A DNA stretch of 42,164 bases from a virus (IMGVR_UViG_3300045747_000694:1-42164); one strand, 5' to 3'. Shown: positions 9,049 to 40,008, counted from the first letter of the stretch. The notes: generated by a model from the letters alone, not told the origin. Translations and numbers: made by a program.

Positions 9049-9070
9049 TAGCGAGCCAGAACAAGGAGAC

Positions 9071-11638: not shown

Positions 11639-12021
11639 TGGACTCGCAGCTGCGCAAGGCGGGCTACAACGTCCTCATCGGTGGCCTGGCGGACAAGATC
11701 AAGACCAAGGACTTCTCGCCCAAGGCGCTGAAGCAGGGGCGCAAGGTGGAGCACGAGCACACCAGCAGCCCCCGCATCGCCACCGAGATCGCCAAGGACC
11801 ACCTCACGGAGGACCCGATGTACTACGACAAGCTGAAGCTCATCGAGAAGAAGGCGTTCGCAGACGAGCTCATGAAGATCTCGATGAGCTTCAAGGGCTT
11901 CAGCGAAGTGGCCCAGAACTACGCCGGCACCCTGAAGGCTGCGGGTGGCATCAAGAAGGCGAAGAAGCTCCAGGCCGCCGCTGGTGGCGTCTCGAACATC
12001 GTCCCCCGCGTCGGCGGGTAG
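11638..12021 (+). CDS. Small protein (127 aa) with internal AFxDELxKI motif (KKAFADELMKIS)
   Basis: ATG overlaps the upstream TGA. Motif sits at ~residue 75. Gly/Ala-rich C-terminal region. Confidence 0.55.
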   Translation: MDSQLRKAGYNVLIGGLADKIKTKDFSPKALKQGRKVEHEHTSSPRIATEIAKDHLTEDPMYYDKLKLIEKKAFADELMKISMSFKGFSEVAQNYAGTLKAAGGIKKAKKLQAAAGGVSNIVPRVGG

Positions 12022-12030
12022 GAGCACCAC

Positions 12031-12165
12031 ATGATCGTCAAGACCTTCGCCAACGTGAACGACCTCCAGGCCTACCTCACGGCCAACACCATCACGCTCG
12101 CCAAGACCGTCGCCATCTACTTCGACGCGGCCAGCGGACACCACGTCCTCGTCCACACGCCGTAG
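12031..12165 (+). CDS. Very small ORF (44 aa); below the ORF-track threshold
   Basis: GGTAGGAGCACCAC then ATG at 12031. MIVKTFANVNDLQAYLTANTITLAKTVAIYFDAASGHHVLVHTP. Fills an otherwise unexplained 180-nt gap. GC3 is high. Confidence 0.35.
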   Translation: MIVKTFANVNDLQAYLTANTITLAKTVAIYFDAASGHHVLVHTP

Positions 12166-18900: not shown

Positions 18901-21385
18901 GGCCTTCTCTGCCGCCGCCACCGCCGGCACCCTGTCCTACTCCGTGTGGGACATGCAGGCCGGGGCCGCCGTGGGTCCGGAGTGCTGTTCCGTCATGGCC
19001 AATGTCGGCATCGGCAAGGACAACACCCAGGACTTCACCGGCATCTACGCCGACTGGTTCGTCTCAAAGACTCTCCTCTCGGAGCAGGCGGAGGCGGTGA
19101 AGTTCTGCACGGACATCCTCCCGCCCGTGGGGTCCTCTGCCGTGCAGGCCTACCAGGAGAACTACCAGTACGACTACCGAGCGGCGATGGGCGCCCACCT
19201 CGCTCTTCCTGGATCTCCCATTGCGAACCACGTCATCGACGGTGGGGCGTCTCGCCCCCTCGATGGCGCCGGCGGTAGGGCGTGGATGGGGACCTACACC
19301 TCTTGGAGAGGGCCACAGGTCAGTATCGTCGTGGGGCAGCAGGTCTCCGTGGACCTCGGGCAGGACTTGGAGATCGGCTCCATCATCGTGCGAGGTTGTG
19401 CGCAGAACACGGGTGCCCCCAACACAGCGGGTGCGCTTGCGACTCCCGGTAACGGGTACGGGGGAATGATTGCGAGCATCCTCAGCGCTCCCAACTCTGG
19501 CGGTGCTCCTGCGGCATCCTCCACCGTTCGGTGCGCCGGCAGCAGCAACCTCTCCGGCACGCTCAACACGGCCACCATCACCACGACCGGCGACTTCATG
19601 GGAAGCGCCACGGGGGTGACCGCCAGCGATGGCGCGACGAACATCATCAGCATCGGGGCCAGCTCCTTCCAGTCGGCGGTCAGCAGGTTCTCCCAGACCA
19701 ATGTCGGGATGATCCTGAAGACCACCAGCGGGCCGGACGTGGGGCAGTACCGCATCCTGACCGTGAGCGGCGACGGCTCCACGGTGACTGTGAGGAACCT
19801 CGATCAGACCTCGAAGACCTGGAGCGGCACGGCCTCTGGCATCGCCTTCACGGTCTACGACGGCGTGCAGGACGAGGACCTCATCTGCATCCCCAGCCTC
19901 GGGACGCCTACCTACCGCCTGGTCGTCGAGCGCCTCTCGAACGACGCCAAGACGGCCTATCCGAGAGTCCAGCTGGGGACCACGATCGCGAGCCAGAGCT
20001 GGCAGTGCGTGAAGCCAAGCTGGAACCTTGTGAAGAGGATCTCCTCCACCGGGACCGTGCTTCCTCCAGAGGTCAGCAACAACGGCACCTTCTTCTCGAT
20101 GGATGGTGGGGAGAACTTCGGACACTTCAACCTTCCGACCGGTACCAGTCGGTCGCCTTCTCGATGGTGGAAGGCCGTCATCGACCTCTCCGATCTCTCC
20201 ACAGCAAAGCGGACGGCCCGGTGGTGGAAGTTCGCCGCGCTGGGTAGGGAGTTGAATCTTTGGCAGTACGGGGCTGAGTACTACCTCTCTTCCCTTGAGT
20301 TCTACGACACGAGCGGAAAGAGGATGTTCACCCACGACTACTGCCAGGCTGATACGGTCTTCGCGCAGCCGCAGATGATCAGCGTCTTCTACACGAGGGC
20401 GGACTTCCTCCTCGCGTCCAACGCCGCTGCCCCTCAGTACACCGGCTACAACGGAACCGCCATCCTCGGGGGGACGAGCGGCAACACGGTCACGCTGACG
20501 GGGAGCAACAAGTTCCTGGGCTACCAGCTCCGCCCGAAGGGAGCGCTGGGCACCATCCCGGGGAGCTCGAACGTCTTCAACGGCCACGCCAACGACCCGG
20601 CCTTCCTGACCACGACCGATGTCGGCAGGTTCTTGAAGATCAACACCGGCGTCAACGCTGGGGTCTACCGCATTGCCACCGTCCCCGGTGCGACCCAGGT
20701 CACTCTCGTCACCATCAACAGCGCTGCGGTGACCCTCACGGCGGATGCCGGTCCGGTGGAGTACTCGATCCACGAGGGCATCAACGTCGGAGGGGCGAAC
20801 CCCGACTTCCTCTACTTCACCACGGGGGGCAACTCGGCAGGGCGCAAGGAGCTCACCCTCGCCACCCTCTCTGATGACCTCACGACCGTTACTGTGGTCG
20901 AGAGCCAGTTCGGAAGTCTTTCGGGCCAGAGCTGGGAGATCCGCAGAAGGGCTCTCGAGGATCGCACGCAGACGCCCGGGACGAACAGCGGTGCCAGCGC
21001 GCGGCTCCTCTACGTCGAGGCCATGTACCCCTACCAGTCTGGGGACATCTGCCAGGACACCAAGGGCTACGTGAAGTTCTGGCCCGGTGACATCGGAGGT
21101 ACCAACAAGACGGCCGGAGTCGCCGTGGGTGGCACGGCCAACTTCCAGGCCGCCTCTTCCGGCACCTTCACCCAGGACGATGTGGGGCGGATCCTCCTCA
21201 TCACCTCTGGCGTCAACAAGGGGTCCTACCGCATCTCGGCATACAACAGCACCAGCGAGGTGGCCCTGGTGAACCACTTCACCGGCGCCGCAGTGTCACT
21301 CACCGGGGACGCCTCGGTGACCTACACGATCCTCGGCGAGAGGCGCTTCCGCTTCAGCCGCTACGTCACCTCCCTGAGGTCGTAG
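15962..21385 (+). CDS. Giant tail-fibre or host-interaction protein (1807 aa) with six copies of a ~55-aa repeat module
   Basis: Single uninterrupted ORF with high GC3. Repeats with consensus D(V/L)GR.(I/L).(I/L)..G...G.Y.I...V......VTL......A....G....Y.I lie at roughly aa 205-255, 513-571, 942-997, 1246-1300, 1551-1606 and 1739-1792. Confidence 0.75.
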   Translation: MSQVSALIRVDYQGLGGIRQSLQKANLAFKGALWDMTSLSWTWSTNGIAITPDCIPYPWKHHPALAAGASQMSVRHSFHSDGSTYGFGLAFGTLVGMRSGFDIGRMRFFNSTPHYSVQTDQCVAIGAITLVHDMRSNANTINNGAGSGQGNMFSSVDLDITQIGAPYLHPVYQGTIATTLGASYVPMAQASISAYYYYAHLVTCIRLETGADRGSYLVQSIDRANSRIYLKNMDGSKWVAQATNASVTFSQGYRVSFFNETGVIPNSTGQVAFDGKYDAGDHRGSYIYRIHFEKSGSPSPAAEAQRGSYWLSLRGFLNGNGVAGDLYHQDDGGFTQRISYHSPNTACGFFYNTSMLGMSNAISSGMVLERTNQRLWCVTVDGTQGNSSVGYWNYKSPESFREVCSAAGAPNDPLPVPFTPPASSYARAPAIGSDGTVYVAFSKVADQTGAGWLAIKPDLSRTFVTAAAMAVPTSGDLQPCVVDTTKARTGTTAAASTTSAGHILCAGAGFASADLGRCIKLTGNTFDNGTYLIGTINGATDITVTNLNGSAVSFTGGSGGTFQIGDRIYLFSGGEATWNAGKMSWTDSLSFGTRFTKTVTMTAGAQAYSYPYLGGAPPACVDPLTGRIFWLSADGVKHLNMYDPAAQTVTQRPLSDLAVQVSGSNANPTAPTVMWTVAVNTNTYFRELWVGTDKGHYRFDPDNLSAQFSRFYGTSNGTYAEADGNLQLDGGVTEWAANVAQNIGATQYGFMPDGQVFGILPSWGLSSASYFPMLVKFNREAHNWLSAATIGGNESQAQCLQSTYAFWYTNTVSFFFDPFGALVFYQPNMKAETAKGAIRLVHPSAIHYQWTGSAWTPREVVRGGLPDSVSSPGCLCKPMHTTLDDLVLGVKVKFTSSGAVGGENGEFLGRFGQKGLSRTDGATVIGTNGFVGSGFSALSFTSPDVGRYYVRIESGADQGTYKILTYTNDTSITLQKFNGTAFSAAATAGTLSYSVWDMQAGAAVGPECCSVMANVGIGKDNTQDFTGIYADWFVSKTLLSEQAEAVKFCTDILPPVGSSAVQAYQENYQYDYRAAMGAHLALPGSPIANHVIDGGASRPLDGAGGRAWMGTYTSWRGPQVSIVVGQQVSVDLGQDLEIGSIIVRGCAQNTGAPNTAGALATPGNGYGGMIASILSAPNSGGAPAASSTVRCAGSSNLSGTLNTATITTTGDFMGSATGVTASDGATNIISIGASSFQSAVSRFSQTNVGMILKTTSGPDVGQYRILTVSGDGSTVTVRNLDQTSKTWSGTASGIAFTVYDGVQDEDLICIPSLGTPTYRLVVERLSNDAKTAYPRVQLGTTIASQSWQCVKPSWNLVKRISSTGTVLPPEVSNNGTFFSMDGGENFGHFNLPTGTSRSPSRWWKAVIDLSDLSTAKRTARWWKFAALGRELNLWQYGAEYYLSSLEFYDTSGKRMFTHDYCQADTVFAQPQMISVFYTRADFLLASNAAAPQYTGYNGTAILGGTSGNTVTLTGSNKFLGYQLRPKGALGTIPGSSNVFNGHANDPAFLTTTDVGRFLKINTGVNAGVYRIATVPGATQVTLVTINSAAVTLTADAGPVEYSIHEGINVGGANPDFLYFTTGGNSAGRKELTLATLSDDLTTVTVVESQFGSLSGQSWEIRRRALEDRTQTPGTNSGASARLLYVEAMYPYQSGDICQDTKGYVKFWPGDIGGTNKTAGVAVGGTANFQAASSGTFTQDDVGRILLITSGVNKGSYRISAYNSTSEVALVNHFTGAAVSLTGDASVTYTILGERRFRFSRYVTSLRS

Positions 21386-27708: not shown

Positions 27709-30700
27709 ATGGCGACTGGTGAGCTTCTGAGGCCCGGAGTCGAGGTCATCCAGCAGATCCGGAAGACCTCTCCGACCGTGCTTCGCCCGACGCTCGTTCC
27801 CTGCGTGGTGGGAACGGCGTTCGAAGTCGTGAACGTTCTCAACTCGGACGGGACGATCAACTCGAAGGCGAAGTGGGGCACGTACGCACAGGTCGCCAAG
27901 GCGATCTCGGAGAGCGCCTTCCCCGACCCTCGCGGCAACATCGCGGAGCTCGACTTCCTCGAGGACACCGTCCGGCCGTACCTGCTGCACGGTGGCTCCC
28001 TGAGCTACCTGCCGCTCACGCACGGGTCGTCCTTCCTGGCCTCCCTGCACAAGTCGAGCAAGGCGGTCATCCGGACCGACGTCTTCTCCGGCGTCTCCGG
28101 GCTGGACCTCAACGGCCTGGTGCTCACCCTCGCCCTCGACCTGCCGGCCATCGCCGACCACAGCCGCGACATCGCCATCACCTTCGTCGGCTCCGGCATC
28201 GGCGGGACCGGGGTGCTCACCTCCCAGCAGTGCGCGGACCAGATCAACGCCGCTGTCGGCGAGCTCGTCGCCACCGTGGTCGGCGCCGCGCCCAGCGACC
28301 GGGTGCAGATCGCCTCGCCCACCTACGGCGCGCTCTCCTCGGTCACCATCCGGCCGGGGACGGCCAACGTGCCGCTCAAGGTCGCCTTCCTCACCACCGA
28401 CGGCAACTACACCGAGCGCGTCGAGGGTGCCGGCCTGCGCGGCCAGGACGACCTGAACAACGACACGGTCACTCCGTGGGTCGAGTTCTTCCAGGGCGAG
28501 TACTACTACGGCGCGGGCTCCGCGGCCGTCGCCACCACGTACCGCGCGCAGTGCGGCGCCATCGACCTCGAGACCCAGGCCTTCGCGGCCGCCAAGGCCG
28601 CGGCGGTCACCTTCTCAGGTGGCAGCCCGACCGTCGCCCTCAAGGTCGGCGACTTCGTCGTCGCCGACGGCGTGCGGCTCGCCAGCGGCGAGGTGATGAA
28701 GGTCGAGACCAGCCGGTTCAAGGTCGGGACCATCAACACCCTGCTCTCCACCGCCGACGCGCAGGGCAGCTACACCACCAAGGTCTACGACGGCCAGCAG
28801 GTCGGCACGGCGTACGACACGACCCCGTTCGCCCCGACGTACTGCTTCTTCGTGGCCAACGACATCGACTGGCGCCTCGCCACCGGGGCGCTGGCTGCCG
28901 CGGTCACCGGCAACGGCGCCCACTCCGCGGCCGCGGCGGCCACCGTCGCCACCGTCGCCACGCCCTCGGGCCCCTACTCGCTCCAGGGCCTGGGCCTTCA
29001 CTACACCTCCACCATCGACGGCGTGGAGACCGAGGGGACCTTCACCTTCACGGCCGCGTCCTACCTCGACATGGACGCCGTGGTCGCAGCTCTCGGGACC
29101 AACATCCCCGGCGTGCTCGCCACCAACGACGCGGGCCAGCTCCGGCTGACCTCGACGAAGACCGGCGTCCTCCAGGGCATCAAGGTCTGGGGCAACAGCA
29201 CCTGCCGCTCGGTGCTGCTCTTCGCCCTCGACGTCGCCGACCTCGGCGAGGACACCCTCTACACCGCCAACACCGGCCTGACGGGCAAGTACCTGACCTT
29301 CCAGTTCGACCGGAACCCCCACACCTACGCGGTGCTGGCCACCAGCAACTCCCTCGAGGAGCTCGTCTCCGAGATCAACAAGACCGTCGGCGTGACGGTG
29401 GCGACCATCTCGTCGGGCTTCATCGTGCTCACCTCGCCCCTCAAGGGCATCGCGAGCCGGGTGACCATCCTCGACACCGGCAGCAACAAGGCCGAGGACA
29501 ACCTCGGGCTGACCGCCGGCAACACCGACGGCACCGGGCGCCCCTACCCGGACGCCTACCTCGACGACGCGCTGGTCCTCCACATCGGCTCGGAGATCCT
29601 GCGCGACTCCGTCACCGGCTACCCCCTCGACCAGGCCTACGACACGGGCACCCTGTACGTCCAGTACAAGGCGCTCCGCAAGGACGTCTCGGCCGCCGCG
29701 GCGCAGCCCGGCGTCATCCGCGTCTCCGACACCAGCACCCTGCTGGCGGTCCTGGACCCGGTGACCGAGGAGAACCCGCTGGCCCTGGGCATGTTCCTCA
29801 CCATGCTGAACGCCCCCACCTTCGAGGTGAAGGGTCTCGGCATCGACGAGGTGACCGCGGCCGCCCCCGAGGGCACCGAGGTGGCCTGGGCCCGCGCGGC
29901 CGCGCTGCTGGAGACCGAGGAGGTCTACGCCATCGCCCCGCTCACCCAGAACGAGGTCGTCCAGGGCATGTGGATGACCCACTGCTCGGTGATGAGCGCC
30001 CCGGAGCAGGGCGGCGAGCGCATCGTCTTCCCCAACAAGAAGATGCCGACCAACAAGAACTCGTCCATCGCGGCGAGCGGCTCGGCGGCCAACACCACGG
30101 CCTCCCCGAACCAGCTGGTCATCGACATGAACCCGTCTTCGGGTCTCGTGGCGCTCGGCCTCAACCCCGCCCTCGGCTTCGCCGTGGCGCAGGGCGTCTT
30201 CGTCGAGGTCACGGTCGCGAGCGAGCTCCGCCGGTACAGCGTCTCGAGCGTCACCGGCTCCCTCGTGAACCTGCGGACCACCTTCTCCTCCAGCGAGAAC
30301 GCCGACGCCTTCTACTCGGACGTCTTCCTGGACGTCCCGGTGGTCAACAGCGCCTACACGCTGAAGGTGCGCGGCGCGGCGCTCACCATCCCGGGCACCA
30401 ACCCGGCCATGTACGACTACTCGCTCATGAGCGAGACGGTCGCCGAGGCCAACACGCTCTTCAAGAACCGGCGCGTCTACGAGGTCTTCCCGGACACCGT
30501 GAAGCTCCAGGTGAGCGGCGTCGAGAAGGCCCTGCCCGGCTACTACGCCTCCTGCGCCATCGTCGGCATGGTGGCGGCGCAGCCCCCGCAGCAGGGCTTC
30601 ACCAACTTCCCCATCGTCGGCCTGACCGGCGTGGTGGGGACCGAGAAGTTCACCAAGCGCCAGCTGAACGTGATGGCCGGTGGCGGCACCTACATCCTGA

Positions 30701-31053
30701 TGCAGGAGGTGCCGGGCGGCTCCGTCTTCTGCCGGCACCAGGTGTCGACCGACCTGACCAGCGTCGAGACCCGCGAGCTCTCCATCACCAAGGTGGTGGA
30801 CTTCGCGGCCAAGATCCTGCGCATCGGCATCCGCCGATTCATCGGGACCAGCAACGTCAACCCCCAGCTGCTCGACATGCTGGGCGCCACGGTGCACGCC
30901 ATCCTCAAGTTCCTCGAGGACACCGGCGTCATCAACGGGTCGAACATCAACAACCTGGTCCAGGACAAGGCGAACCCGGACACCATCCTCGTCGACGTCA
31001 CCCTGGACGTTCCGTACCCCTGCAACTACATCCGCCTCACCCTGATGGTGTGA
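27709..31053 (+). CDS. Contractile tail sheath protein (1114 aa) with duplicated internal insertion domains
   Basis: RBS GAAGAAGGAGCCTGAC then ATG. N-terminal MATGELLRPGVEV resembles the sheath N-terminal PGVY segment. C-terminal ~150 aa (…GGGTYILMQEVPGGSVFCRHQVSTD…DVTLDVPYPCNYIRLTLMV) resembles the conserved sheath C-terminal domain. Followed directly by a tube-sized gene. Confidence 0.6.
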   Translation: MATGELLRPGVEVIQQIRKTSPTVLRPTLVPCVVGTAFEVVNVLNSDGTINSKAKWGTYAQVAKAISESAFPDPRGNIAELDFLEDTVRPYLLHGGSLSYLPLTHGSSFLASLHKSSKAVIRTDVFSGVSGLDLNGLVLTLALDLPAIADHSRDIAITFVGSGIGGTGVLTSQQCADQINAAVGELVATVVGAAPSDRVQIASPTYGALSSVTIRPGTANVPLKVAFLTTDGNYTERVEGAGLRGQDDLNNDTVTPWVEFFQGEYYYGAGSAAVATTYRAQCGAIDLETQAFAAAKAAAVTFSGGSPTVALKVGDFVVADGVRLASGEVMKVETSRFKVGTINTLLSTADAQGSYTTKVYDGQQVGTAYDTTPFAPTYCFFVANDIDWRLATGALAAAVTGNGAHSAAAAATVATVATPSGPYSLQGLGLHYTSTIDGVETEGTFTFTAASYLDMDAVVAALGTNIPGVLATNDAGQLRLTSTKTGVLQGIKVWGNSTCRSVLLFALDVADLGEDTLYTANTGLTGKYLTFQFDRNPHTYAVLATSNSLEELVSEINKTVGVTVATISSGFIVLTSPLKGIASRVTILDTGSNKAEDNLGLTAGNTDGTGRPYPDAYLDDALVLHIGSEILRDSVTGYPLDQAYDTGTLYVQYKALRKDVSAAAAQPGVIRVSDTSTLLAVLDPVTEENPLALGMFLTMLNAPTFEVKGLGIDEVTAAAPEGTEVAWARAAALLETEEVYAIAPLTQNEVVQGMWMTHCSVMSAPEQGGERIVFPNKKMPTNKNSSIAASGSAANTTASPNQLVIDMNPSSGLVALGLNPALGFAVAQGVFVEVTVASELRRYSVSSVTGSLVNLRTTFSSSENADAFYSDVFLDVPVVNSAYTLKVRGAALTIPGTNPAMYDYSLMSETVAEANTLFKNRRVYEVFPDTVKLQVSGVEKALPGYYASCAIVGMVAAQPPQQGFTNFPIVGLTGVVGTEKFTKRQLNVMAGGGTYILMQEVPGGSVFCRHQVSTDLTSVETRELSITKVVDFAAKILRIGIRRFIGTSNVNPQLLDMLGATVHAILKFLEDTGVINGSNINNLVQDKANPDTILVDVTLDVPYPCNYIRLTLMV

Positions 31054-31960: not shown

Positions 31961-32212
31961 CTACTTCGCGTCGCTAGCGACCCGCGGCTTGCGCGCCTTG
32001 GGGGTTCTCGTGAGGGACCTGACGCGGCCCGCCTGCTGCCGGCCCTTGTCGTCCTTCACCAGCTCGAACTCGACCGTGTCGCCCTGCGTCAAGGTCCGGT
32101 ACCCCTCCATCTCGATGTTCGAGTGGTGGACGAACAGGTCCTTGTCGTCCCCGTCGGGGACAACGAAGCCGAACCCCTTGATGGAGCTGAACCACTTGAC
32201 CTTGCCGCGCAC
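31961..32212 (-). CDS. Cold-shock domain protein (83 aa) with basic C-terminal tail
   Basis: GKVKWFSSIKGFGFVVPDGDDKDLFVHHSNIEMEGYRTLTQGDTVEFELVKDDKGRQQAGRVRSL aligns by eye to E. coli CspA (GIVKWFNADKGFGFI...DVFVHFSAI...). No ATG is available. GTG at 32212 is the nearest in-frame start, but the RBS is weak, so the start is uncertain. Confidence 0.65.
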   Translation of the reverse strand: MRGKVKWFSSIKGFGFVVPDGDDKDLFVHHSNIEMEGYRTLTQGDTVEFELVKDDKGRQQAGRVRSLTRTPKARKPRVASDAK

Positions 32213-32256
32213 GAGGCCATTGTCGGTGCGCGGCAGGTCTGTGGGTAGGGGAAAGA

Positions 32257-32853
32257 CTAGGCGCTGGGCGCCGCGAGCGGCATGAAGGTCGGCGGAGTCG
32301 CCCCGTTCCCCGGCAGAGGCACCGGCGGGAGCGTCTGCGCCGCCGCGGCGACCTTGGGCTGCTCCGACGCGCGCCGGCGGGCCACCTCGGCCGCGATGCG
32401 CTCCTTCTCCCCGGTCTGGATGGTGTCGAGGCTGACCGTGCCCTCGTCCTTGCCCCTGATCTCGATGACCGCCGGCTGGCCGTGGGGCAGGATCCTCCGC
32501 AGCGCGTCGAGGTGCTCCACCGCGGCGCTGGCGGCCTTCTCGAGCTTGCCGAGGAGCTCGGCGTTGCCGCAGTCGCCCAGGGTCAGGCGGTTGGTGGCGA
32601 GGTTGGTGAGGATCGTGGCGACCCGGTCCATCTCCCAGACGTAGTGCTCCGGGTCCATCATCGCGACCTTCTCGACCCGGACGTTGCGGGGAGTATCCTT
32701 CCACTCCTGCTTCTTGGGCGAGGGAGCCGCCGCATGCACCGCGTGAGGGGTAACGGCGGGGGCCGACCTCATGGCCCCCTTGCCGGCCACCGACTTCTTC
32801 TCGGCGGCGCGCTGCTGCTTGGTCTTGGTCCGGTCGTACTGTCCACGGGGCAT
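32257..32853 (-). CDS. Hypothetical Lys-rich protein (198 aa)
   Basis: RBS CACAGGAGTCACT then ATG at 32853. N-terminal basic region MPRGQYDRTKTKQQRAAEKK. Confidence 0.6.
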   Translation of the reverse strand: MPRGQYDRTKTKQQRAAEKKSVAGKGAMRSAPAVTPHAVHAAAPSPKKQEWKDTPRNVRVEKVAMMDPEHYVWEMDRVATILTNLATNRLTLGDCGNAELLGKLEKAASAAVEHLDALRRILPHGQPAVIEIRGKDEGTVSLDTIQTGEKERIAAEVARRRASEQPKVAAAAQTLPPVPLPGNGATPPTFMPLAAPSA

Positions 32854-32896
32854 AGTGACTCCTGTGTGTGGGGAAAACTACCACAGGTCTATAACG

Positions 32897-33055
32897 TCAC
32901 TCTGACACCTGGCCCAAGAACTTCTTGATGGCATGAAGGGCGATCTCGCTCTTCGTGACTCGCCTCTTCATGCCCTTCTGCATCTCCCTGCGAAGAGCCT
33001 CGAGCTTCTTCGAGATCTCTCTTGGAAGAGTCACCTCAAGGCGGTACCCCTTCAT
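32897..33055 (-). CDS. Ribbon-helix-helix (CopG/Arc-like) DNA-binding protein (52 aa)
   Basis: MKGYRLEVTLPREISKKLEALRREMQKG...SEIALHAIKKFL shows a beta-strand then two helices. GGAGG lies 9 nt upstream. ATGA-coupled to the upstream gene. An alternative ATG is 15 nt upstream (MEALDMKGY). Confidence 0.6.
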   Translation of the reverse strand: MKGYRLEVTLPREISKKLEALRREMQKGMKRRVTKSEIALHAIKKFLGQVSE

Positions 33056-33348
33056 GTCCAAGGCCTCCATTCCATCATGGCTCCCCACAAGATGCCCTGG
33101 TTGATGGGGAGCCCGAGGTCGAAGTCGGTCTTCGTGAGTACCCGTCCCAGACGCCGCTCGAGACAGAAGAGGCACAATCCGACATGCCTCTTGTGCTTGT
33201 GCGACGTCTCGGTTCCTGGCCACTCCCGCTGGAGATGAGACTTCACCTCTTGGTAGTCCGGGAAGGCCGCGCGCCAGATCGACTCGAGCACCATGAAGGA
33301 CGGAGCAGCTTTGCGGCAGTCGTAGCACTCCAGCCCGCCGTCCTTCAT
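33052..33348 (-). CDS. Zinc-finger protein (98 aa): CxxC, a His-rich block, then CxxC
   Basis: MKDGGLECYDC...SHKHKRHVGLCLFCLERR. ATG at 33348 forms an ATGA overlap with the upstream gene. Its own stop forms an ATGA overlap with the RHH start. Confidence 0.5.
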   Translation of the reverse strand: MKDGGLECYDCRKAAPSFMVLESIWRAAFPDYQEVKSHLQREWPGTETSHKHKRHVGLCLFCLERRLGRVLTKTDFDLGLPINQGILWGAMMEWRPWT

Positions 33349-33641
33349 CCCGGCAGCGCCACGTTGTCCTGGCGCAGCTCCTCGATGCTGTGCTCCCCGA
33401 GCATCCAGAGGACGCCCTGGAGGAAGCCGAACCACATGACGACGAGGTCCGGCTGGCCCACCTCGACGAAGTGGAGGATCTGGTCGCAGATCCAGAGGGC
33501 GTGCTGCTTGATCTTCCCGTAGTCGGCGATGTAGTCGCCCTCGACGAGGAAGTTCGGATCGACCTTCTGGGCGACGAAGCCCTCCCGGGTGAGCTCCTCC
33601 TTGTACTTCTTCACGTCCCTGATGATGAGCTCTTCGGTCAC
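33345..33641 (-). CDS. Hypothetical protein (98 aa), GTG start
   Basis: GTG at 33641 with AAGGAG 8 nt upstream and a GTGA overlap with the upstream stop. Upstream in-frame sequence is RP-rich junk. Confidence 0.5.
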   Translation of the reverse strand: MTEELIIRDVKKYKEELTREGFVAQKVDPNFLVEGDYIADYGKIKQHALWICDQILHFVEVGQPDLVVMWFGFLQGVLWMLGEHSIEELRQDNVALPG

Positions 33642-33802
33642 CGCTTGGTCTCCTTCTTCTCGGGGGCCTTCTGCGTCTGCGCCTTGAGGGCCGAGTCGCT
33701 GGAGCGTCCCTGGGTGGTGCTCGAGTTGCCGGCGTGCTGCTTCGGCTTCATGAGCCACGCCTTCTTGATCTTGCGTCCGACTCCATCGAATCCAGGTGGC
33801 AT
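33638..33802 (-). CDS. Small basic protein (54 aa); not in the ORF track
   Basis: GCTGAGGAGTACGTA then ATG at 33802 (TAATG overlap with the upstream stop). MPPGFDGVGRKIKKAWLMKPKQ... TGA overlaps the GTG of the next gene (GTGA). Confidence 0.4.
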   Translation of the reverse strand: MPPGFDGVGRKIKKAWLMKPKQHAGNSSTTQGRSSDSALKAQTQKAPEKKETKR

Positions 33803-34086
33803 TACGTACTCCTCAGCTTCCTCAAGAGATCACTCGCCTTGATGGCGAACTCATCGGGCCCCATGCCCAAGTCCCTTCCGTCTTCACTGACGTGGTGGCC
33901 CCAGCGAAGAACGCCAGGAGCCTCCGCATCTTCACGAACGAACTGCCCCACGAGCTTGACGATGCTCTTCATGTTGCGGACCTCGGCTCCGAGCTTCTTC
34001 ACGCACTCGTACAGCCAGCCGTCTGCCTGGCCCTTCCTCCCCGCCGGGTGCTTCATACCGCAGTGGGGGCAAGCCTTCTGTGCCAT
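33802..34086 (-). CDS. Small Zn-ribbon protein (94 aa)
   Basis: N-terminal MAQKACPHCGMKHPAG. TGATG-coupled to the upstream gene. Confidence 0.55.
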   Translation of the reverse strand: MAQKACPHCGMKHPAGRKGQADGWLYECVKKLGAEVRNMKSIVKLVGQFVREDAEAPGVLRWGHHVSEDGRDLGMGPDEFAIKASDLLRKLRST

Positions 34087-34541
34087 CAGCGCAAGTCCAG
34101 TCCGGGGTGGATGACCCCGACGAGTCCTCCCCTGGGGCAGGCCGGGCAGATGATGCCGTGTGGGTACTCCTTCGTCGGGTCCTCGTCCTTGAACTCCGTG
34201 TGGCAGCGAGGGCAGATGAGCAGCCTCGGGCTCGGAGGCCCGATGTAGCCCACTTCATCGAAGCCGGAGGTCGGAACCTTCAAGGCTTCGGCTGGCGACA
34301 TCTTCACCACGTCCTTCGAGAGGCAGCGACGGTAGTGGTCGTTCCAGCCGGGGTCGACCTCCCCCTTCTTCGCACCGCTGCGGATGATGAAGTCCGCAGG
34401 CGCCCGCCGCATCTCCGTCGCCAGCACCTCGAGCCAGTCTGCTCGGTCGATGCGTGCCACCAGGCGGTGCTTGTTGGAGATGCGACGGTACCCTTGGGCA
34501 ACGGCATCTTCTGCCTTGAGGTCTGGCATCTCGGTCCACAT
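34086..34541 (-). CDS. Hypothetical protein (151 aa) with C-terminal Zn ribbon
   Basis: GGGAGGTAGGG then ATG at 34541 (MWTEM...). C-terminal LICPRCHTEF...GIICPACPRGG. Confidence 0.55.
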   Translation of the reverse strand: MWTEMPDLKAEDAVAQGYRRISNKHRLVARIDRADWLEVLATEMRRAPADFIIRSGAKKGEVDPGWNDHYRRCLSKDVVKMSPAEALKVPTSGFDEVGYIGPPSPRLLICPRCHTEFKDEDPTKEYPHGIICPACPRGGLVGVIHPGLDLR

Positions 34542-34543
34542 CC

Positions 34544-35161
34544 CTACCTCCCGGCACAGCAGATGGTGCAGGGAGTGGAGATCGTGATGCCGTTGACGAT
34601 CTTGTCGACGACGATCTTGCCGCCGCACTCGGTGCAGGCTGTGGGGGCAGGCTTGCTCTTCTCGCCGTAGCAGTAGGAGCAGGCCCCATCGCTCGTGCGC
34701 GCCCATGTGGCTTGGTCACGACCGCAGTGCTTGCACACCATGATGACCCGCGGAGACTCTCGATGCTCTGCGATGGTCTCTTCGAGCCAGGTTCCCGGGA
34801 CGACGCCCGGGACCTTCACTCGATCGTGGTGGATGGGGCTTGTGACGGTGGCTGCTGGGAAGTTCTTCACCATCCCGCCCCCACCGTCGTGGTCCTTGCA
34901 GAGCCCGAGGTTGACTGCCGGCTTCTCGCAGTACTCGCACCTCATCTGATGGGGACCCGGCCTCTTGCACAGCGGGCAGGACTTGTAGACCGTCCAGTCC
35001 ATCTCCCCCGGGTCTTGGATGCGCTTCCGGAGGACGTTGTAGGCGACGAGGGTGGTGACGATGCGTGCCCACCCATAGACGACCAAGGCCTCCATGGGAG
35101 GCCCGGGGTTCTCGTAGATGTCCTTGATCTCCTTCTCAGAGAGGAGTGCTGGGATCGACAT
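34544..35161 (-). CDS. Cys-rich protein (205 aa) with six CxxC pairs (three predicted Zn-ribbon/treble-clef units)
   Basis: CPLC, CEYC, CKHC, CSYC, CTEC and CTIC(C), spaced as three ribbon units. AAGAAAGGG precedes the ATG at 35161. Confidence 0.6.
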   Translation of the reverse strand: MSIPALLSEKEIKDIYENPGPPMEALVVYGWARIVTTLVAYNVLRKRIQDPGEMDWTVYKSCPLCKRPGPHQMRCEYCEKPAVNLGLCKDHDGGGGMVKNFPAATVTSPIHHDRVKVPGVVPGTWLEETIAEHRESPRVIMVCKHCGRDQATWARTSDGACSYCYGEKSKPAPTACTECGGKIVVDKIVNGITISTPCTICCAGR

Positions 35162-35321
35162 GCGGCCCTTTCTTGGTGGACTCGATGAAGCGGAGGAAGG
35201 CTTCCAACACCTCGGGCTCGAGGAAGATCACGTTGCTCGCCTCCATGCCGTTCTCGGTGGTGAGGATGATGTGGAAGGGGCTGAGCTCGACGTACACGCT
35301 GTCCCCGAGGTAGGTCTTCAT
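35136..35321 (-). CDS. Small hypothetical protein (61 aa)
   Basis: AACAAAGGAGCGCC then ATG at 35321 (ATGA overlap with the upstream stop). 26-nt overlap with the downstream gene start. Confidence 0.45.
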   Translation of the reverse strand: MKTYLGDSVYVELSPFHIILTTENGMEASNVIFLEPEVLEAFLRFIESTKKGPHVDPSTPL

Positions 35322-35605
35322 GGCGCTCCTTTGTTCCTCTTCATGAGCTTCGGCCCCTTCGGCTTGGGTGGCTTCTTCGGCAGCCGAAGCTCCTGGAAGA
35401 GCGACGAGATGATGAAGATGATGGGGAGGAGGTTCGGCGCGATGTACTTCCCGTCCATGATGCAGCCACAGACGAAGCAGTAGGGCGCCGAGGTGACTGT
35501 GTCGTGCACCGTGGTGATGTAGTTGATGACGAGCACCTCGGCGCGGCAGGAGGCGCACGTTCCTTCCTGCGCCCCCTTGCCTGCCCAGACGTCGTAGCGC
35601 CTCAC
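35318..35605 (-). CDS. Membrane-anchored Zn-ribbon protein (95 aa), GTG start
   Basis: GTGA overlap with the upstream stop. CASC...CFVCGC, then hydrophobic LLPIIFIISSLF, then a basic tail KKPPKPKGPKLMKRNK. Confidence 0.5.
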   Translation of the reverse strand: MRRYDVWAGKGAQEGTCASCRAEVLVINYITTVHDTVTSAPYCFVCGCIMDGKYIAPNLLPIIFIISSLFQELRLPKKPPKPKGPKLMKRNKGAP

Positions 35606-35943
35606 AGGGCGAGCTCCGTCTGCATCGTCTTGGGCTTGCGCTTCAGGCACATCTTGCAGTCGACCCGGGCCCAGTCCTCGGTGAGGCGGCTGGCGGGCAC
35701 CATCTTGTCGGAGCAGATGGGGCAGTTCATGATGCCCCAGTGCATTCTCCGAGGGATGAGCCGCATCGCCTCTTCCTTCGTCGGGGTGTTGTGCCCTACC
35801 TCCGAGCCGAGGACGGAGTAGTGGAAGTTCCTGAGCTGCTTCGCGGCTTGCTGAAGGACGGTGTTGGCCGCTCCCTCCAGCATCTGCTCGTCTCGTTCGT
35901 TCCTGGCCTCGACCAGGATGCGCAGCGTGATGACGCGCTTCAT
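35602..35943 (-). CDS. Zn-ribbon protein (113 aa)
   Basis: CTAGAAAGGGAGTAG then ATG at 35943. CPICSDK...CKMC. Confidence 0.6.
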   Translation of the reverse strand: MKRVITLRILVEARNERDEQMLEGAANTVLQQAAKQLRNFHYSVLGSEVGHNTPTKEEAMRLIPRRMHWGIMNCPICSDKMVPASRLTEDWARVDCKMCLKRKPKTMQTELAL

Positions 35944-35954
35944 CTACTCCCTTT

Positions 35955-36266
35955 CTAGGTTGGTGGGTGGAGCACGAGGCGGTACCCGAGCTCCTTCGCT
36001 CGAGCACGCACCTCGGCAACCTGCTCCTCCCTGGTCTTCTCCGCGGTTGGCGGCGGAGCTGCGGGCATCCAGGCATCAGGGAGGTTCTTCCTCAGCGCCC
36101 GGCTGTCGAGTGCCACGAAGTGGAGGGCTAGGGCTTTCGCCGCCTCCTTGAAGGAGTCGTCGAGGTCCATGTCCTGACCAGACTCGTAGTTGAACTCGAC
36201 ACCCAAGAACCGAAGGATGCGCTCTGCGTTGAGCCGCGCATCCCGGAGAACCTCGTTGATGTTCAT
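35955..36266 (-). CDS. Hypothetical protein (103 aa)
   Basis: ATG at 36266 (MNINEVLRDARL...). Upstream in-frame sequence is junk. RBS is weak. Confidence 0.45.
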   Translation of the reverse strand: MNINEVLRDARLNAERILRFLGVEFNYESGQDMDLDDSFKEAAKALALHFVALDSRALRKNLPDAWMPAAPPPTAEKTREEQVAEVRARAKELGYRLVLHPPT

Positions 36267-36268
36267 CG

Positions 36269-36595
36269 CTACATCTCGCTCTCTTCTGCAACGTCGTTCA
36301 GGCTGTTGATCTCCGACTCCAAGCTGAGCATGGTGTCGCAGACAACAGGGACCTCCACGGTGAGGTCCTGGTTGAAGCGCATCTTCATCTCGTCCTTCAT
36401 CGACTTGAAGTAGTCGACTCTCTTCTCGTACGCGAAGGTGGGCACAGTATAGACGCCACACCGGTTCCCGTTGGGCTCTCTCACTTCGATGATGCGAACG
36501 TCCCGGAGCTTGCGGAGCACCCGCACCCGAGCCTCGAGCCTCTTCTTCTCTTCGCGAAGGAGGGCGAGCTCCTTCACCAGCGTCGTCTTGGCCAT
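36269..36595 (-). CDS. Hypothetical coiled-coil protein (108 aa)
   Basis: ATG at 36595 overlaps the upstream TGA (TGATG). MAKTTLVKELALLREEKKRLEARVRVLRKL. Confidence 0.55.
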   Translation of the reverse strand: MAKTTLVKELALLREEKKRLEARVRVLRKLRDVRIIEVREPNGNRCGVYTVPTFAYEKRVDYFKSMKDEMKMRFNQDLTVEVPVVCDTMLSLESEINSLNDVAEESEM

Positions 36596-37152
36596 CACGC
36601 CTCCGTGCGGGGCATAGCGAGGTACGCCTCGTGGAGCTTCTTCATGTACTCGGTGGCCTTCTCGTAGCTCCAGGCGTGGATCATCTTGCCCTCGGCCGCC
36701 ATGGTGACCTGCTCGGTGGCTCCGAAGAGCGAGCCAGCCGTGGCGTCGATGATGGACTCCGTCCACTCGAGATGGATGACGCGCTTGCGCCAGCCGACCT
36801 TGATGACGCCCATCTTCGTGGTGACGAGGAGCCACGGCAGGTGCGGGCAGCACGTGTCCCCGCAGTACCCGTTGGGGATCTCCTTCACGAAGATGGCGCC
36901 GATGTTGGCGTCGCGGAAGATCGCGTCGGCCCTCTCGAGCCACTCCTTCTTGTAGCCCTGGTACTTGGGATCGACGCGACGCATCTCGACGTGGAGCGCC
37001 GTGAGGAGGTTGCGGACAGCCTCCTCGATGGCGCGGTCGTCGTTCTTCGTGAGTGGCCGCGGGTAGGCCAGCCGGAGGTCGAGGCCGATGTGCCCATCCT
37101 CCCCTACCTGCTCGCTGCGGTAGACCCTCTTGTACTCCTTCTCGTCGATCAC
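36595..37152 (-). CDS. Hypothetical protein (185 aa) with CGDTCCPH cluster, GTG start
   Basis: GTG at 37152 with GGAGGGAGG upstream and a GTGA overlap with the upstream stop. No family recognised. Confidence 0.5.
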   Translation of the reverse strand: MIDEKEYKRVYRSEQVGEDGHIGLDLRLAYPRPLTKNDDRAIEEAVRNLLTALHVEMRRVDPKYQGYKKEWLERADAIFRDANIGAIFVKEIPNGYCGDTCCPHLPWLLVTTKMGVIKVGWRKRVIHLEWTESIIDATAGSLFGATEQVTMAAEGKMIHAWSYEKATEYMKKLHEAYLAMPRTEA

Positions 37153-37328
37153 CTTGCCTCCCTCCGCAGGAGAGGAGCCTTCTCCAACATCCAAGGGGTG
37201 AAGCACTCGGTGTGCAGGAGGAACGCCTTCTTCGTGCTGGGAGTCTGCACCTCGAGCATGCTGTCTCCATCCTTGATGGCGCTCTTGCACTCCGCGCACT
37301 TGAAGCTCTTCTTGGTCTTTCTGGCCAT
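37149..37328 (-). CDS. Small Zn-ribbon protein (59 aa)
   Basis: CTGAGGAGCTG then ATG at 37328 (TGATG overlap with the VWA gene stop). FKCAECK...HTEC. Confidence 0.55.
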   Translation of the reverse strand: MARKTKKSFKCAECKSAIKDGDSMLEVQTPSTKKAFLLHTECFTPWMLEKAPLLRREAR

Positions 37329-39055
37329 CAGCTCCTCAGGTAGTTGGTGAAGGAGGTCCTCACGAGATCGGTCATCTCGAAGAAGAGGTCCTCCGGGTTG
37401 TCTCCGACGCGCACCCAGCGCTTCGGGCCCAGCATCCTGTCCGCCTCTGAAGACGGCAGGGTGTTGCCCAGCAGCACGGTGCTGACTCGGATGCGCCGGC
37501 GAGAGGCATCGACCACGTCCTGCCTCACCTGCTCGCGCAGGCTGATGTTCGACTGGGCCCCGATGGTCTGCGGGTTGCCGTCCGAGACGATGAGCAGGTG
37601 CTTCATCCTCCCAGGCATCTGGGCCAGCTGCCGCGCAGCGACAGGAACGGCGATGTGAAGCGGGGTGAGCCCCCACGCCTCGGGGATGGTCTTCTTCGGC
37701 AGGTAGCCCTTGGTCGGGTCCTCGAAGTCGATGATGACTGTCCCTCCGGTGCTGTCGCCAGAGAAGCCCCAGACCTTCACGTTCGAGAAGGGGAACTTGG
37801 TAGCCACCGCAGCCACCTTCGCTGCCCTCGAGACGGTCATCCAGAGCTGCTGCATGGAGCCGCTCATGTCGAGCAGGATGATGAGGTCGAAGCCCTTGGC
37901 CGGGCGGTCCTCGAGGAAGAACTCCATGTCGCCCTGACCGTGGAGGAACTCGATGTAGCGCTCGGGGTCGAGGTGGGATCCCTCTTCGGCCCTCGCACGG
38001 GTGCGCTGGTCGATGAGCTTGATGAAGATGCGGCGCAGCTCCGAGGCGAGACGGGAGTCCCTCTCGCTCAGCCTGAACTCCTCGGCGTCATGGGTGGCCA
38101 CGTGGATGATCTTCGTCCTGTGCATCCCCTTCAAGAGGTCCTGGTCCGGCGGGATCTCGTGCAGCTTGGAGGAGAGGCGGCGGATGAGCGTCTGCACCTC
38201 CTCCATGCCTGAGCTGAGGAGCTGGGTGAGCGCATCATCCGACTCGAGGCCCATCGCAGTGCGCGCGACGTGCCTGGTCTTCTCCGTGTCCCTGTCGAGA
38301 GCTCGAGGGGACTCGGTGTCGAACAGCAGGGCAGACCCCCGAGATTGGAGGGCCGCCTTCTCCATCTGAACGACTGCCCGCTCGTTGCTGTAGGGCTTCC
38401 TCTTCGTCATCCTCCTCACCCCACCAGCCTGCGGCACGCCGGGCTCCTGGAGCACCTCCTCATCTGCGAGGAGGCCGATGACGTGGTCGAGGATGATGCG
38501 GGTGGCCACGAGCACAGTGGGGTAGCTGGCACGCTTCACCAGTTCGAGCGCTCGCAGGATGACGGGGTCGAAGCGGTCCCAGTTGCTGCCGGGGACCACG
38601 GCTGCGTCGATGCCGAGGGCGATGACCCTCATGGTGAGGTTGCCCTTCGTCCCGTCGGCGAGGAGGCGCTCCCACCGAGTCTTCAGGCGCTCGGCACTGC
38701 CCGGGTACACCATCTCGTGGAGAGAGTGCACCCGAACGTCATCGACGGCGTTGGCGAGCATGTCGATGAAGTCCTCCTGGAGGGAGGTGGGGGACAGCCC
38801 CTTCAGCTTCCTCTCCTCGAGGTAGAGCTCCACGAAGTGCGCTCGAGCGTAGAGGTCCGTGCCGAAGAGCACGTGCGTCCACTCGTGCTTGTGGATGACG
38901 TCCACCTCCTGGTCCTCGATGGGGACAGAGAGGTAGGTCTCGGTGTCCGTCCGACCAGGAGGATCAGCGGCGAAGAGCGTGAGCTCCTTCCCCGTGAGGC
39001 CGCAGAAGATCTTGTGGACCTTCCGCATGATGTCGACCCGGTCCTTGTGGCTCAC
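37328..39055 (-). CDS. von Willebrand factor A (VWA) domain protein, CobT-like partner of the AAA+ ATPase (575 aa)
   Basis: GTG at 39055 in a GTGA overlap with the AAA gene stop (the in-frame ATG at IMRKVH is an alternative). C-terminal FDLIILLDMSGSMQQ (MIDAS DxSGS) ... LLIVSDGNPQ. Confidence 0.65.
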   Translation of the reverse strand: MSHKDRVDIMRKVHKIFCGLTGKELTLFAADPPGRTDTETYLSVPIEDQEVDVIHKHEWTHVLFGTDLYARAHFVELYLEERKLKGLSPTSLQEDFIDMLANAVDDVRVHSLHEMVYPGSAERLKTRWERLLADGTKGNLTMRVIALGIDAAVVPGSNWDRFDPVILRALELVKRASYPTVLVATRIILDHVIGLLADEEVLQEPGVPQAGGVRRMTKRKPYSNERAVVQMEKAALQSRGSALLFDTESPRALDRDTEKTRHVARTAMGLESDDALTQLLSSGMEEVQTLIRRLSSKLHEIPPDQDLLKGMHRTKIIHVATHDAEEFRLSERDSRLASELRRIFIKLIDQRTRARAEEGSHLDPERYIEFLHGQGDMEFFLEDRPAKGFDLIILLDMSGSMQQLWMTVSRAAKVAAVATKFPFSNVKVWGFSGDSTGGTVIIDFEDPTKGYLPKKTIPEAWGLTPLHIAVPVAARQLAQMPGRMKHLLIVSDGNPQTIGAQSNISLREQVRQDVVDASRRRIRVSTVLLGNTLPSSEADRMLGPKRWVRVGDNPEDLFFEMTDLVRTSFTNYLRS

Positions 39056-40008
39056 GTGAGCCCCACTCGAGCGGCGAGGTCGGCGTGCGTCCCGTTCTTG
39101 GTGATGTCCTGGATCCGCTCGATGACGAGCTTCCGGTCCTCGTCGCCGAACTTCTGGCAGAGGAGGAACATCATGTCGAACCAGCCAACGCGGGGGAGCA
39201 GGTTGATGAGCTCCACCAGGTCGCGCGTGGAGAGGGAGTAGCTGGTGGCGCCCTGCCGGGTCTGGTTGGCGATGTTCACCAGCATCTCCAGGCCCTGCTG
39301 CTGGATGGGGTCTCCCATCGAGCCCGTCTTCCCGTAGCCGGTCATCTCCATGAGGATCTCCTTCTCCGCCTCGGGGGGCGGGTAGGGGATGTCGATGCAG
39401 GTGAAGCGCGAGCGCAGGTCGTCGTTCAGCTCGTTGGTCCCGCCGTACACGGTGGGGTTCTGCGTGGCGATGACCCAGAGCTTGGCAGTGGGCGAGAGCT
39501 CGAGCCTGGTGGAGAGCTCTGGGATCTCCAGCTTGCGCCTGAAGTCGGTGAAGCTGTTCACCAGCTTCTGCTGCTGGTTGGGCAGCGAGTTCAGCTCCTC
39601 GAGCACGAGCATGGCGAAGCCGCACTCGTTGGCCACCTTGATGGCATTGGCGACGGTGCCGAGGATGAAGGGGGTCTCGCCGCTCTTGGCGATGAAGCCT
39701 CCCTTGAAGTGCCGCTCCCGCGTCTCCTCCGAGCAGTCCATGGAGAGGTAGGGGATGCCGAGGGTCTCGGCCAGGTACGACGCCAGCAGGGACTTCCCCG
39801 TCCCCTTCGGTCCGTTGAGGAGGAGGTTGGGAGGGTCCCAGGTACCCGAACCGGTAGGTACCTGACTCATCTTGGTGATGAAGGGGATGAGCTCGAAGAC
39901 GTCCACGAACTTCAAGCTCTTCCTCAAGACGAGCGAGGCAGGTACCATGTACCGGACTTCGATGCCGTTGACGCGGAGGATGCCCTCTCCAATTGCTTCG
40001 AGAGTCAT
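39052..40008 (-). CDS. MoxR-type AAA+ ATPase, CobS-like (318 aa)
   Basis: Walker A LLLNGPKGTGKSLLASYLAE. Walker B AMLVLEELN. MoxR-like length and layout. First gene of the minus-strand operon, downstream of the divergent promoter region. Confidence 0.75.
   Translation of the reverse strand: MTLEAIGEGILRVNGIEVRYMVPASLVLRKSLKFVDVFELIPFITKMSQVPTGSGTWDPPNLLLNGPKGTGKSLLASYLAETLGIPYLSMDCSEETRERHFKGGFIAKSGETPFILGTVANAIKVANECGFAMLVLEELNSLPNQQQKLVNSFTDFRRKLEIPELSTRLELSPTAKLWVIATQNPTVYGGTNELNDDLRSRFTCIDIPYPPPEAEKEILMEMTGYGKTGSMGDPIQQQGLEMLVNIANQTRQGATSYSLSTRDLVELINLLPRVGWFDMMFLLCQKFGDEDRKLVIERIQDITKNGTHADLAARVGLT

Follow-up and report, generated by a model that had tools for sequence, protein, structure and literature searches.

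The window analysed here, the 42,164-nt viral sequence IMGVR_UViG_3300045747_000694:1-42164, is a phage fragment with 64% G+C that encodes a major head protein and a head-maturation-protease-like protein. On its minus strand, two neighbouring genes specify an AAA+ ATPase of 318 amino acids (aa) and a protein of 575 aa with a VWA domain, termed the adaptor in the following. The N-terminal 200 aa or so of the adaptor contain an invariant HExxH motif, which was overlooked in the initial annotation of this sequence. The pair is very probably a MoxR/VWA machine of the CobST/NorQD type, and its adaptor's N-terminal domain is predicted to be zincin-like. The genes are arranged as follows:

39052..40008, minus strand: gene for the AAA+ ATPase, 318 aa, MoxR/AAA_5 class and CobS/NorQ-like according to Pfam, PHROG, PDB, and hhalign comparisons
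39052..39055, minus strand: GTGA start/stop overlap of the ATPase and adaptor genes, read from the sequence
37328..39055, minus strand: gene for the adaptor, 575 aa, GTG start at 39055, with a putative zincin-like N-terminal domain, a linker, and an extended VWA domain in the AlphaFold2 model

Both reading frames were supported by a plot of the G+C content at third codon positions (GC3), and homologues of the adaptor begin at an equivalent position (MNHKERVDI...). An identical 575-aa protein, P0001, is found among the Joint Genome Institute (JGI) gene calls of a 153-kb contig. The two genes are translationally coupled via the GTGA overlap; in the relatives L001, L002, L004, and L006, the genes overlap by 4 nt or 1 nt or are separated by 2 nt. 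Relatives of the window are viral contigs of 68-198 kb with protein identities of 80-93%, and the source is an uncultured phage of about 150-200 kb. A MoxR-type ATPase joined by such an overlap to a second protein with the metal ion-dependent adhesion site known as MIDAS had been described in the initial annotation, and the open reading frames (ORFs), the Walker A and B motifs, the motifs DMSGS and SDGNP, and the overlap were all confirmed.

The ATPase matched the Pfam profile AAA_5 with 3.2e-16 and 60 bits, the cut-off being 22, and judged by its sequence it is a MoxR/AAA_5-class AAA+ protein. Its best PHROG was 249 (CobS-like, 'porphyrin biosynthesis', 1.3e-21), and the best sequence matches in the PDB were AAA_5 modules of midasin (4.7e-25), followed by NorQ (9e-13) and CbbQ (1.5e-10). 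An hhalign alignment to annotated CobS of Rhizobium extended over the full length (aa 23-300; 97.4%, E=1e-11). CbbQ_C (PF08406), which is matched by cyanophage CobS, was not detected in the ATPase at E<=0.1. None of the NCBIfam CobS models matched at E<=0.01; the homology to authentic CobS is nevertheless clear from hhalign. Conservation was determined in an alignment of 22 homologues with 32-89% identity, and labels for sensors and arginine finger were assigned by inference from the usual pattern of MoxR motifs:

39790..39813, minus strand: Walker A, GPKGTGKS, aa 66-73, with G69, G71, and K72 invariant
39595..39609, minus strand: Walker B, LVLEE, aa 134-138, with E138 invariant and E137 at least 90% conserved
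39403..39468, minus strand: candidate sensor 1 (ATQNP, N184) and candidate arginine finger (LRSRF, R201), with N184, S200, and R201 invariant, labelled by position
39220..39231, minus strand: candidate sensor 2 (STRD, R262), with R262 and D263 invariant, labelled by position

Authentic CobS carries LVFDE where Walker B of the ATPase aligns. With these residues retained, the ATPase looks catalytically competent.

For the adaptor, the following features were defined:

38465..39055, minus strand: N-terminal domain, aa 1-197, with helix 1, two short strands, and seven helices in the secondary structure of the model
38945..38962, minus strand: PPGRTD ahead of the HExxH helix, with P32, P33, T36, and D37 invariant in 18 sequences
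38873..38887, minus strand: HEWTH, corresponding to HExxH (H57, E58, H61), on helix 51-63, invariant in alignments of 18 and 20 sequences
38729..38743, minus strand: DDVRV, corresponding to [D/E]DxR, on helix 91-116, candidate third metal ligand from the conservation of position 105, D106, and R108
37892..38464, minus strand: disordered linker (aa 196-222), helices, strand 314-319, long helix 331-358, and a loop of lower confidence (359-388), from DSSP and the predicted local distance difference test (pLDDT) of the model
37331..37891, minus strand: VWA domain, aa 389-575, with the MIDAS residues D396-x-S398-x-S400, T464, and D492, all five invariant in 18 sequences; Foldseek matches to the VWA domain of NorD

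In its C-terminal half, the adaptor is a partner protein with a complete MIDAS VWA domain. DMSGS spans aa 396-400, SDGNP spans aa 491-495, and Pfam VWA_CoxE was matched above threshold (1.1e-6, 28.7 bits, cut-off 26.4). The intact MIDAS site claimed initially was verified. Across 18 adaptor homologues, VWA_2 was found in 13 and VWA_CoxE in 11, and CobT_C gave weak matches in eight (best E 0.0013). Among the profiles named at the outset, AAA_5 and VWA were matched, and CbbQ_C and Pfam CobT were not.

The AlphaFold2 model of the adaptor has a mean pLDDT of 82.7. VWA structures predominate among its Foldseek matches, the top match in the PDB being the NorD VWA domain of the 2026 NorQD complexes (9qh6_G, E=3.4e-8, 288 aligned columns). 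In the database of viral models, BFVD, the top matches are phage proteins designated 'VWFA', 'CobT-like', or 'cobalamin biosynthesis', aligned nearly over their full length and originating from uncultured phages, from phages of Brevibacterium, Gordonia, and Thermus, and from haloarchaeal viruses. The modelled region comprising strand 314-319, helix 331-358, and loop 359-388 may represent a 'finger' or 'shaft', when compared with the published beta0-alpha0'-alpha0-shaft of CobT and the finger of NorD.

Sequence searches retrieved relatives of the adaptor from metagenomes. In total, 24 homologues were detected among 5.8 billion proteins, all of them metagenomic and many on contigs of 130-200 kb; contigs of this size carry phage structural genes. 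No match to the adaptor was obtained with PHROGs, NCBIfam, or PADLOC. A DNA search in distant mode and tblastn with the adaptor against 50,697 phage records gave no hit, nor did two distant family members used as queries.

In zincins, HExxH is located on a helix, its glutamate is catalytic, and a third acidic or histidine ligand follows on a later helix. The adaptor shows this arrangement, as helix 51-63 carries H57, E58, and H61 and helix 91-116 carries [D/E]105-D106, positions 105 and 106 being the putative source of the third ligand; HExxH and DDxRV both sit on confidently modelled helices. Besides the MIDAS residues, the alignment of 18 adaptor sequences has H57, E58, W59, and H61, P32-P33-x-x-T36-D37, and D105-D106-x-R108-V109 as invariant positions. 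When a profile of the N-terminal domain was searched against 1.84 billion cluster representatives, 243 proteins were obtained at E<=0.001, and among the 150 of these that were listed nearly all have 550-800 aa. Only four fragments were recovered when the N-domain profile was used in a word-indexed search for homologues. In 164 N-terminal domains of the family, H57 is present in 152, E58 in 146, and H61 in 163; position 105 is D or E, and R108 is conserved, in every one, D106 is found in 147, T36 in 127, and D37 in 123. A diverse alignment of 20 sequences with 23-42% identity retained six invariant columns only, H57, E58, H61, D106, R108, and L182. Since these columns belong mostly to HExxH and DxR, the zincin-type motif appears to be what selection retains, and the domain is predicted, by its motif, to be of peptidase type.

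Some copies depart from this pattern. In 13 of the 164 N-terminal domains, glutamate is replaced by glutamine, resulting in HQxxH, and HExxH is wholly absent from 20 of 141 representatives. These copies look like naturally inactivated variants in which the remaining architecture is kept.

The two genes of the window are strictly paired in the family. In 20 out of 20 IMG/VR loci with an adaptor relative, down to about 25% adaptor identity, a homologue of the ATPase gene lies upstream on the same strand, no more than 3 kb away. Most of these loci have the two genes abutting, four have one or two small genes in between, and the pairing was also seen in all metagenome loci examined. In one case, P0172 (923 aa; L007 5995-8766), AAA_5, N-terminal domain, and VWA domain are fused in a single chain, this copy being one without HExxH. 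The P0172 contig is phage-like, comprises 27.7 kb, and has genes for an intein-containing DnaB, a Toprim primase, and an SNF2 helicase as neighbours. Because a scan of 185,579 bacterial and archaeal species, one genome each, produced one weak match restricted to the VWA domain, the adaptor family appears to be virus-only.

Comparison with the cellular machines revealed both likeness and difference. The ATPase is homologous to cellular CobS over its full length, whereas an hhalign alignment between the adaptor and authentic CobT was limited to the MIDAS strand, 48 columns. Annotated cobT genes were retrieved by tblastn, and statements on CobT rest on these annotated records. Annotated cellular CobT of Rhizobium, Sinorhizobium, and Pandoraea lacks HExxH and shows RGxGD[SA][MA]AL at that site; where the adaptor has HExxH, cellular CobT thus reads GDSMA or GDAAA. 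Pfam CobT (PF06213) was not detected in 18 adaptor family members, no NCBIfam CobT model matched at E<=0.01, and hhalign comparisons of N-domain profiles with a four-sequence alignment of cellular CobT_N were not significant. The CobST preprint describes CobT_N as a single helix plus a small sheet and roughly eight helices, and its authors note a resemblance to peptidase M48C. The predicted architecture of the adaptor, that is helix, small sheet, and helical bundle, followed by a linker and an extended VWA domain, agrees with how CobT and NorD have been described in the literature. By analogy, the N-terminal domain of the adaptor and CobT_N probably share one fold; as their sequence similarity is not significant, this proposal rests on topology and motif register.

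Such resemblance raises the question whether the pair acts as an auxiliary cobaltochelatase. The viral CobS-CobT would then recruit host CobN and raise cobalamin, for example for a B12-dependent ribonucleotide reductase, and the N-terminal domain would be a docking module. A role of this kind was proposed by Liu et al. for viral cobST, and the homology of the ATPase to authentic CobS, its assignment to PHROG 249, the three-part architecture described for CobT, and the weak CobT_C matches in eight of 18 members are consistent with it; the replication and nucleotide-metabolism context of the family, described below, would suit a B12-dependent enzyme. However, the missing NCBIfam CobS and CobT and Pfam CobT matches and the restriction of the CobT alignment to the MIDAS strand argue against it. 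In addition, HExxH is lost in cellular CobT but kept here, with a catalytic-type glutamate in 146 of 164 domains, and docking would leave this conservation unexplained. Cellular CobS-CobT works with CobN; for the source phage no CobN partner is known, and neither CobN nor a B12-dependent enzyme was seen in the partial genome sequences examined. A chelatase role is regarded as improbable.

The likeness to NorQ-NorD and CbbQ-CbbO is seen on both sides of the pair, since PDB sequence searches with the ATPase gave NorQ and CbbQ among the best matches and NorD VWA domains are the best structural matches to the C-terminal half of the adaptor. On the other hand, NorD's N-terminal domain has not been described as a peptidase, the ATPase has no CbbQ_C match, and the clients of these systems, nitric oxide reductase and Rubisco, are irrelevant to a phage. 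In midasin (Rea1), an AAA_5 module of which heads the PDB sequence matches of the ATPase, an AAA_5 ring is likewise linked to a MIDAS domain with a loop entering the pore, but midasin is one giant eukaryotic polypeptide with six AAA modules and without a peptidase domain. The initial proposal of a CobS/CobT- or NorQ/NorD-like pair is thus upheld by the CobS alignment, the NorD structural matches, and the 'CobT-like' matches in BFVD.

Pairs of the same kind are known from other phages. For group 2.2 jumbo phages, Iyer et al. (2021) described a MoxR ATPase together with a vWA protein that has a metallopeptidase domain at its N-terminus. By their description, the window pair fits this architecture, as adjacent genes of a large phage specify a MoxR ATPase and a vWA protein whose N-terminal domain is of apparent metallopeptidase type. 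As in the window, an AAA_5 ATPase gene is adjacent in the pairs of T4-like cyanophages, Zobellviridae, haloarchaeal tailed viruses, and group 2.2 jumbo phages, and the partner protein has 550-750 aa, with an HExxH domain at the N-terminus and a MIDAS VWA domain at the C-terminus. In cyanophage S-WAM2, a 'peptidase' gene adjoins cobS; its product aligned with the adaptor-family profile in hhalign at E 1e-4 to 2e-4, with PTASFD in register with PPGRTD, HEVGH with HEWxH, and EDARIEKL...YPG with DDxRVxSL...YPG. HExxH is also kept in 'CobT' of Vibrio phage MJW and of phage T5S1 and lost in CobT of Pseudomonas phage nickie. Comparisons of N-domain profiles with the N-termini of the nickie, MJW, and T5S1 proteins by hhalign were not significant, T5S1 being aligned in the expected motif register. 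'CobT' proteins of cultured phages are thus mixed with respect to HExxH (L037 936-3020, L038 1462-3204, L039 4761-6578, L011 3331-5487).

The window pair also differs from these pairs. Sequence similarity of its adaptor to them is marginal, with hhalign E values of about 1e-4 at best, and the gene order, ATPase before adaptor, is reversed in three of four cultured phages, S-WAM2, nickie, and MJW. CobS-like genes were described as core genes of T4-like cyanophages by Liu et al. and were found in 463 phage records. The pair is a very divergent representative of a kind already in the literature, consisting of a phage CobS/MoxR ATPase and a CobT-like VWA protein with a peptidase motif. Phage CobS/CobT-like pairs, which are annotated in hundreds of phage genomes, are usually counted as vitamin-B12 auxiliary metabolic genes, their function having never been demonstrated; the earlier remark that such pairs are known but have no demonstrated function agrees with this literature, in which functions have been proposed.

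Domain identities, conserved motifs, strict gene pairing, and the one fusion are observed in the family, and the best explanation for the pair appears to be a two-part, ATP-driven remodelling machine with probable protease activity, an explanation that we give an even chance of being correct. The mechanism is modelled on the solved NorQD and CobST complexes, in which a finger or shaft is placed in the pore and the MIDAS on the client. The 318-aa ATPase would form an AAA+ ring on which the VWA domain of the adaptor docks, inserting a loop or 'finger' into the central pore, and the MIDAS site would bind a client protein at an acidic residue. Hydrolysis of ATP could then twist, rotate, or stretch the linker of the adaptor and thereby remodel the client. 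The N-terminal domain might also cut the client, which would make the adaptor an AAA+-coupled, MIDAS-targeted zinc peptidase. Cleavage is suggested because the family keeps HExxH, including the glutamate that is catalytic in zincins, and because cellular CobT has lost the motif; whether proteolysis is part of the action is, on these sequence grounds, an evenly balanced question. The client could be a host or a phage protein, and preferences in this respect are only weak. Action would be intracellular, early or middle in infection, and associated with replication.

Several points weigh against a proteolytic machine. Pfam, NCBIfam, and PDB sequence searches tie the N-terminal domain to no peptidase: a Pfam scan of ten matches from the profile search gave no family for the region, and nothing related was found in the PDB with the adaptor alone, with an N-domain profile of 15 sequences, or with a broader profile of 20 sequences. 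Liu et al. considered the 'peptidase' annotation of phage cobT to be mistaken. In the solved CobST complex, the N-terminal domain of CobT merely docks onto the small domain of CobS, and that of the adaptor could therefore be purely structural, too. Finally, in the clade of the window the operon is located between two blocks of structural genes, which would fit a role in assembly.

In such a role, the pair would be a virion-assembly chaperone and processing protease that folds or matures a structural protein. Iyer et al. (2021) proposed this for the same architecture in group 2.2 jumbo phages, and Acidianus two-tailed virus has a MoxR-vWA pair for which such a role was reported. One of the flanking blocks in the clade contains a protein of 1114 aa, the other is tail-fibre-like, and the counterpart in L002 has a protein of 1949 aa with Peptidase_S74. 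The operon, however, lies on the strand opposite to both structural blocks and includes RHH-like and cold-shock genes of its own. Moreover, the pairs of cultured phages are found among replication genes and not among structural ones, and the same applies to distant members of the family. In 14 distant loci, neighbours within 6 kb are mostly genes for replication and nucleotide metabolism (DnaB in six, DnaC/IstB-like in six, Toprim primase in four, UDG in three, ThyX in two, and dCMP deaminase in two). In cultured phages, the cobT-cobS pair adjoins genes for DNA ligase and DnaE, for primase, or for DNA polymerase, and in the cyanophage it adjoins gp46/47 and gp45. Taken across the family, this setting in the replication module favours an early or middle role inside the cell over virion assembly, which is judged rather unlikely.

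A special case of the remodelling and proteolytic machine favoured here would be anti-defence or host takeover, in which a specific host protein, for example a defence component, is removed or inactivated. According to the HIDEN-SEQ preprint, the MoxR gene bas54_0063 of phage Bas54 is specifically required against the predicted defence system DS-28, an experimental precedent for such a role. The apparent restriction of the adaptor family to viruses and the position of the pair at the head of an operon holding a fast-changing island of small genes also point in this direction. On the other side, no specific relationship between the MoxR protein of Bas54 and the ATPase of the window was shown, and the ATPase matches no Escherichia phage at E<=1e-5. 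The pair is conserved across very divergent phages, which suggests that its client is conserved, too, and is not a defence target that varies; a dedicated anti-defence role is doubtful.

A further reading, in which the pair is an ATP-driven, MIDAS-targeted zinc protease destroying one specific host protein, for example one acting in defence or in the control of replication, and cellular CobT is an inactivated descendant or sibling of the adaptor, is possible and somewhat less doubtful, though still tentative. If it were true, hundreds of phage genes annotated as auxiliary metabolic genes under 'cobS/cobT' or 'porphyrin biosynthesis' would specify a proteolytic takeover machine and not B12 synthesis. 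Across the pair, selection preserves a competent ATPase, a complete MIDAS, and a zinc-peptidase motif. The cellular CobT proteins examined have lost this motif. Together with that contrast, the family-wide conservation census added here argues against the routine label 'cobalamin biosynthesis' and for the view that many phage versions, at least, serve in remodelling or proteolysis and not as subunits of a chelatase. Candidate residues for mutation are E58, H57/H61, and D396 in the adaptor and K72 in the ATPase.

As noted initially, the pair heads an operon. It comprises about 18 genes on the minus strand, and CxxC pairs are present in seven of the 13 genes following the pair. A scan for promoters and terminators gave no signal above chance. 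In the clade, the order is ATPase gene, adaptor gene, a variable stretch, a small RHH-like gene, the gene for a 'MPRGxYDR' protein, and a cold-shock gene. Downstream of the pair, the window contains:

33055..37328, minus strand: variable island of 13 small genes, g3-g15, seven with CxxC pairs, from gene calls
31961..33070, minus strand: conserved operon tail, with counterparts after the VWA gene in L001, L004, and L006
32900-33070, minus strand: small RHH-like gene, labelled from its sequence, no Pfam match
32257-32853, minus strand: g16, 'MPRGxYDR' protein, conserved in the clade of phages of about 200 kb
31961-32212, minus strand: cold-shock protein, Pfam CSD 2.8e-23

An NTP-dependent MoxR-vWA conflict system had been considered in the initial annotation. 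In its ternary form with VMAP or iSTAND, carried by the phage, it would act, for example, in superinfection exclusion. It has the MoxR and vWA core in common with the window pair, but there is no VMAP-C or iSTAND gene in the operon or in the loci of relatives examined. The VWA domain forms the C-terminus of the adaptor with no domain beyond it, so that a C-terminal effector is missing, and the peptidase-like domain is N-terminal and not at the effector position. PADLOC yielded nothing for the adaptor and marginal P-loop matches only for the ATPase. The ternary system was rejected for lack of its third component and is considered highly improbable.

Zinc-ribbon proteins of the island had also been suggested as clients or effectors of the pair. 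The island genes are tightly packed, with ATGA, GTGA, or TGATG start/stop overlaps, and g10 (34544-35161) specifies 14 cysteines. None has a significant Pfam match, and the three PHROG matches, g7 to phrog_30413, g9 to phrog_11545, and g11 to phrog_8098, are all of unknown function. Island genes were detectable only in L002, L003, L013, and L014, with 80-93% adaptor identity, apart from one weak match of g14 in L006, and even among these close relatives the content of the island differs. It is absent from relatives with 33-36% adaptor identity that retain the rest of the operon; the variable stretch is missing in L001 and L004 and consists of other genes in L006. The island is a lineage-specific insertion and does not represent conserved partners of the pair. 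Its confinement to the closest relatives removes the main support for the client idea, which was rejected as the island genes are not co-conserved with the pair.

At the place of the island, directly after the adaptor gene, L006 has a gene for a 163-aa HAD/PNKP-like phosphatase (11638-12129, weak Pfam match). At the cold-shock end of the operon, the gene for the 1114-aa protein and the following one, for a protein of 244 aa, adjoin in all relatives of the clade. In the window, the former is one of two giant ORFs on the plus strand, 15962-21385 (1807 aa) and 27709-31053 (1114 aa, GC3 0.97), both without a PHROG match. A 92-nt tRNA-Arg(TCT) called by ARAGORN at 9621-9712 on the minus strand lies antisense within the ORF of the major head protein (8909-10198) and is probably a false positive.

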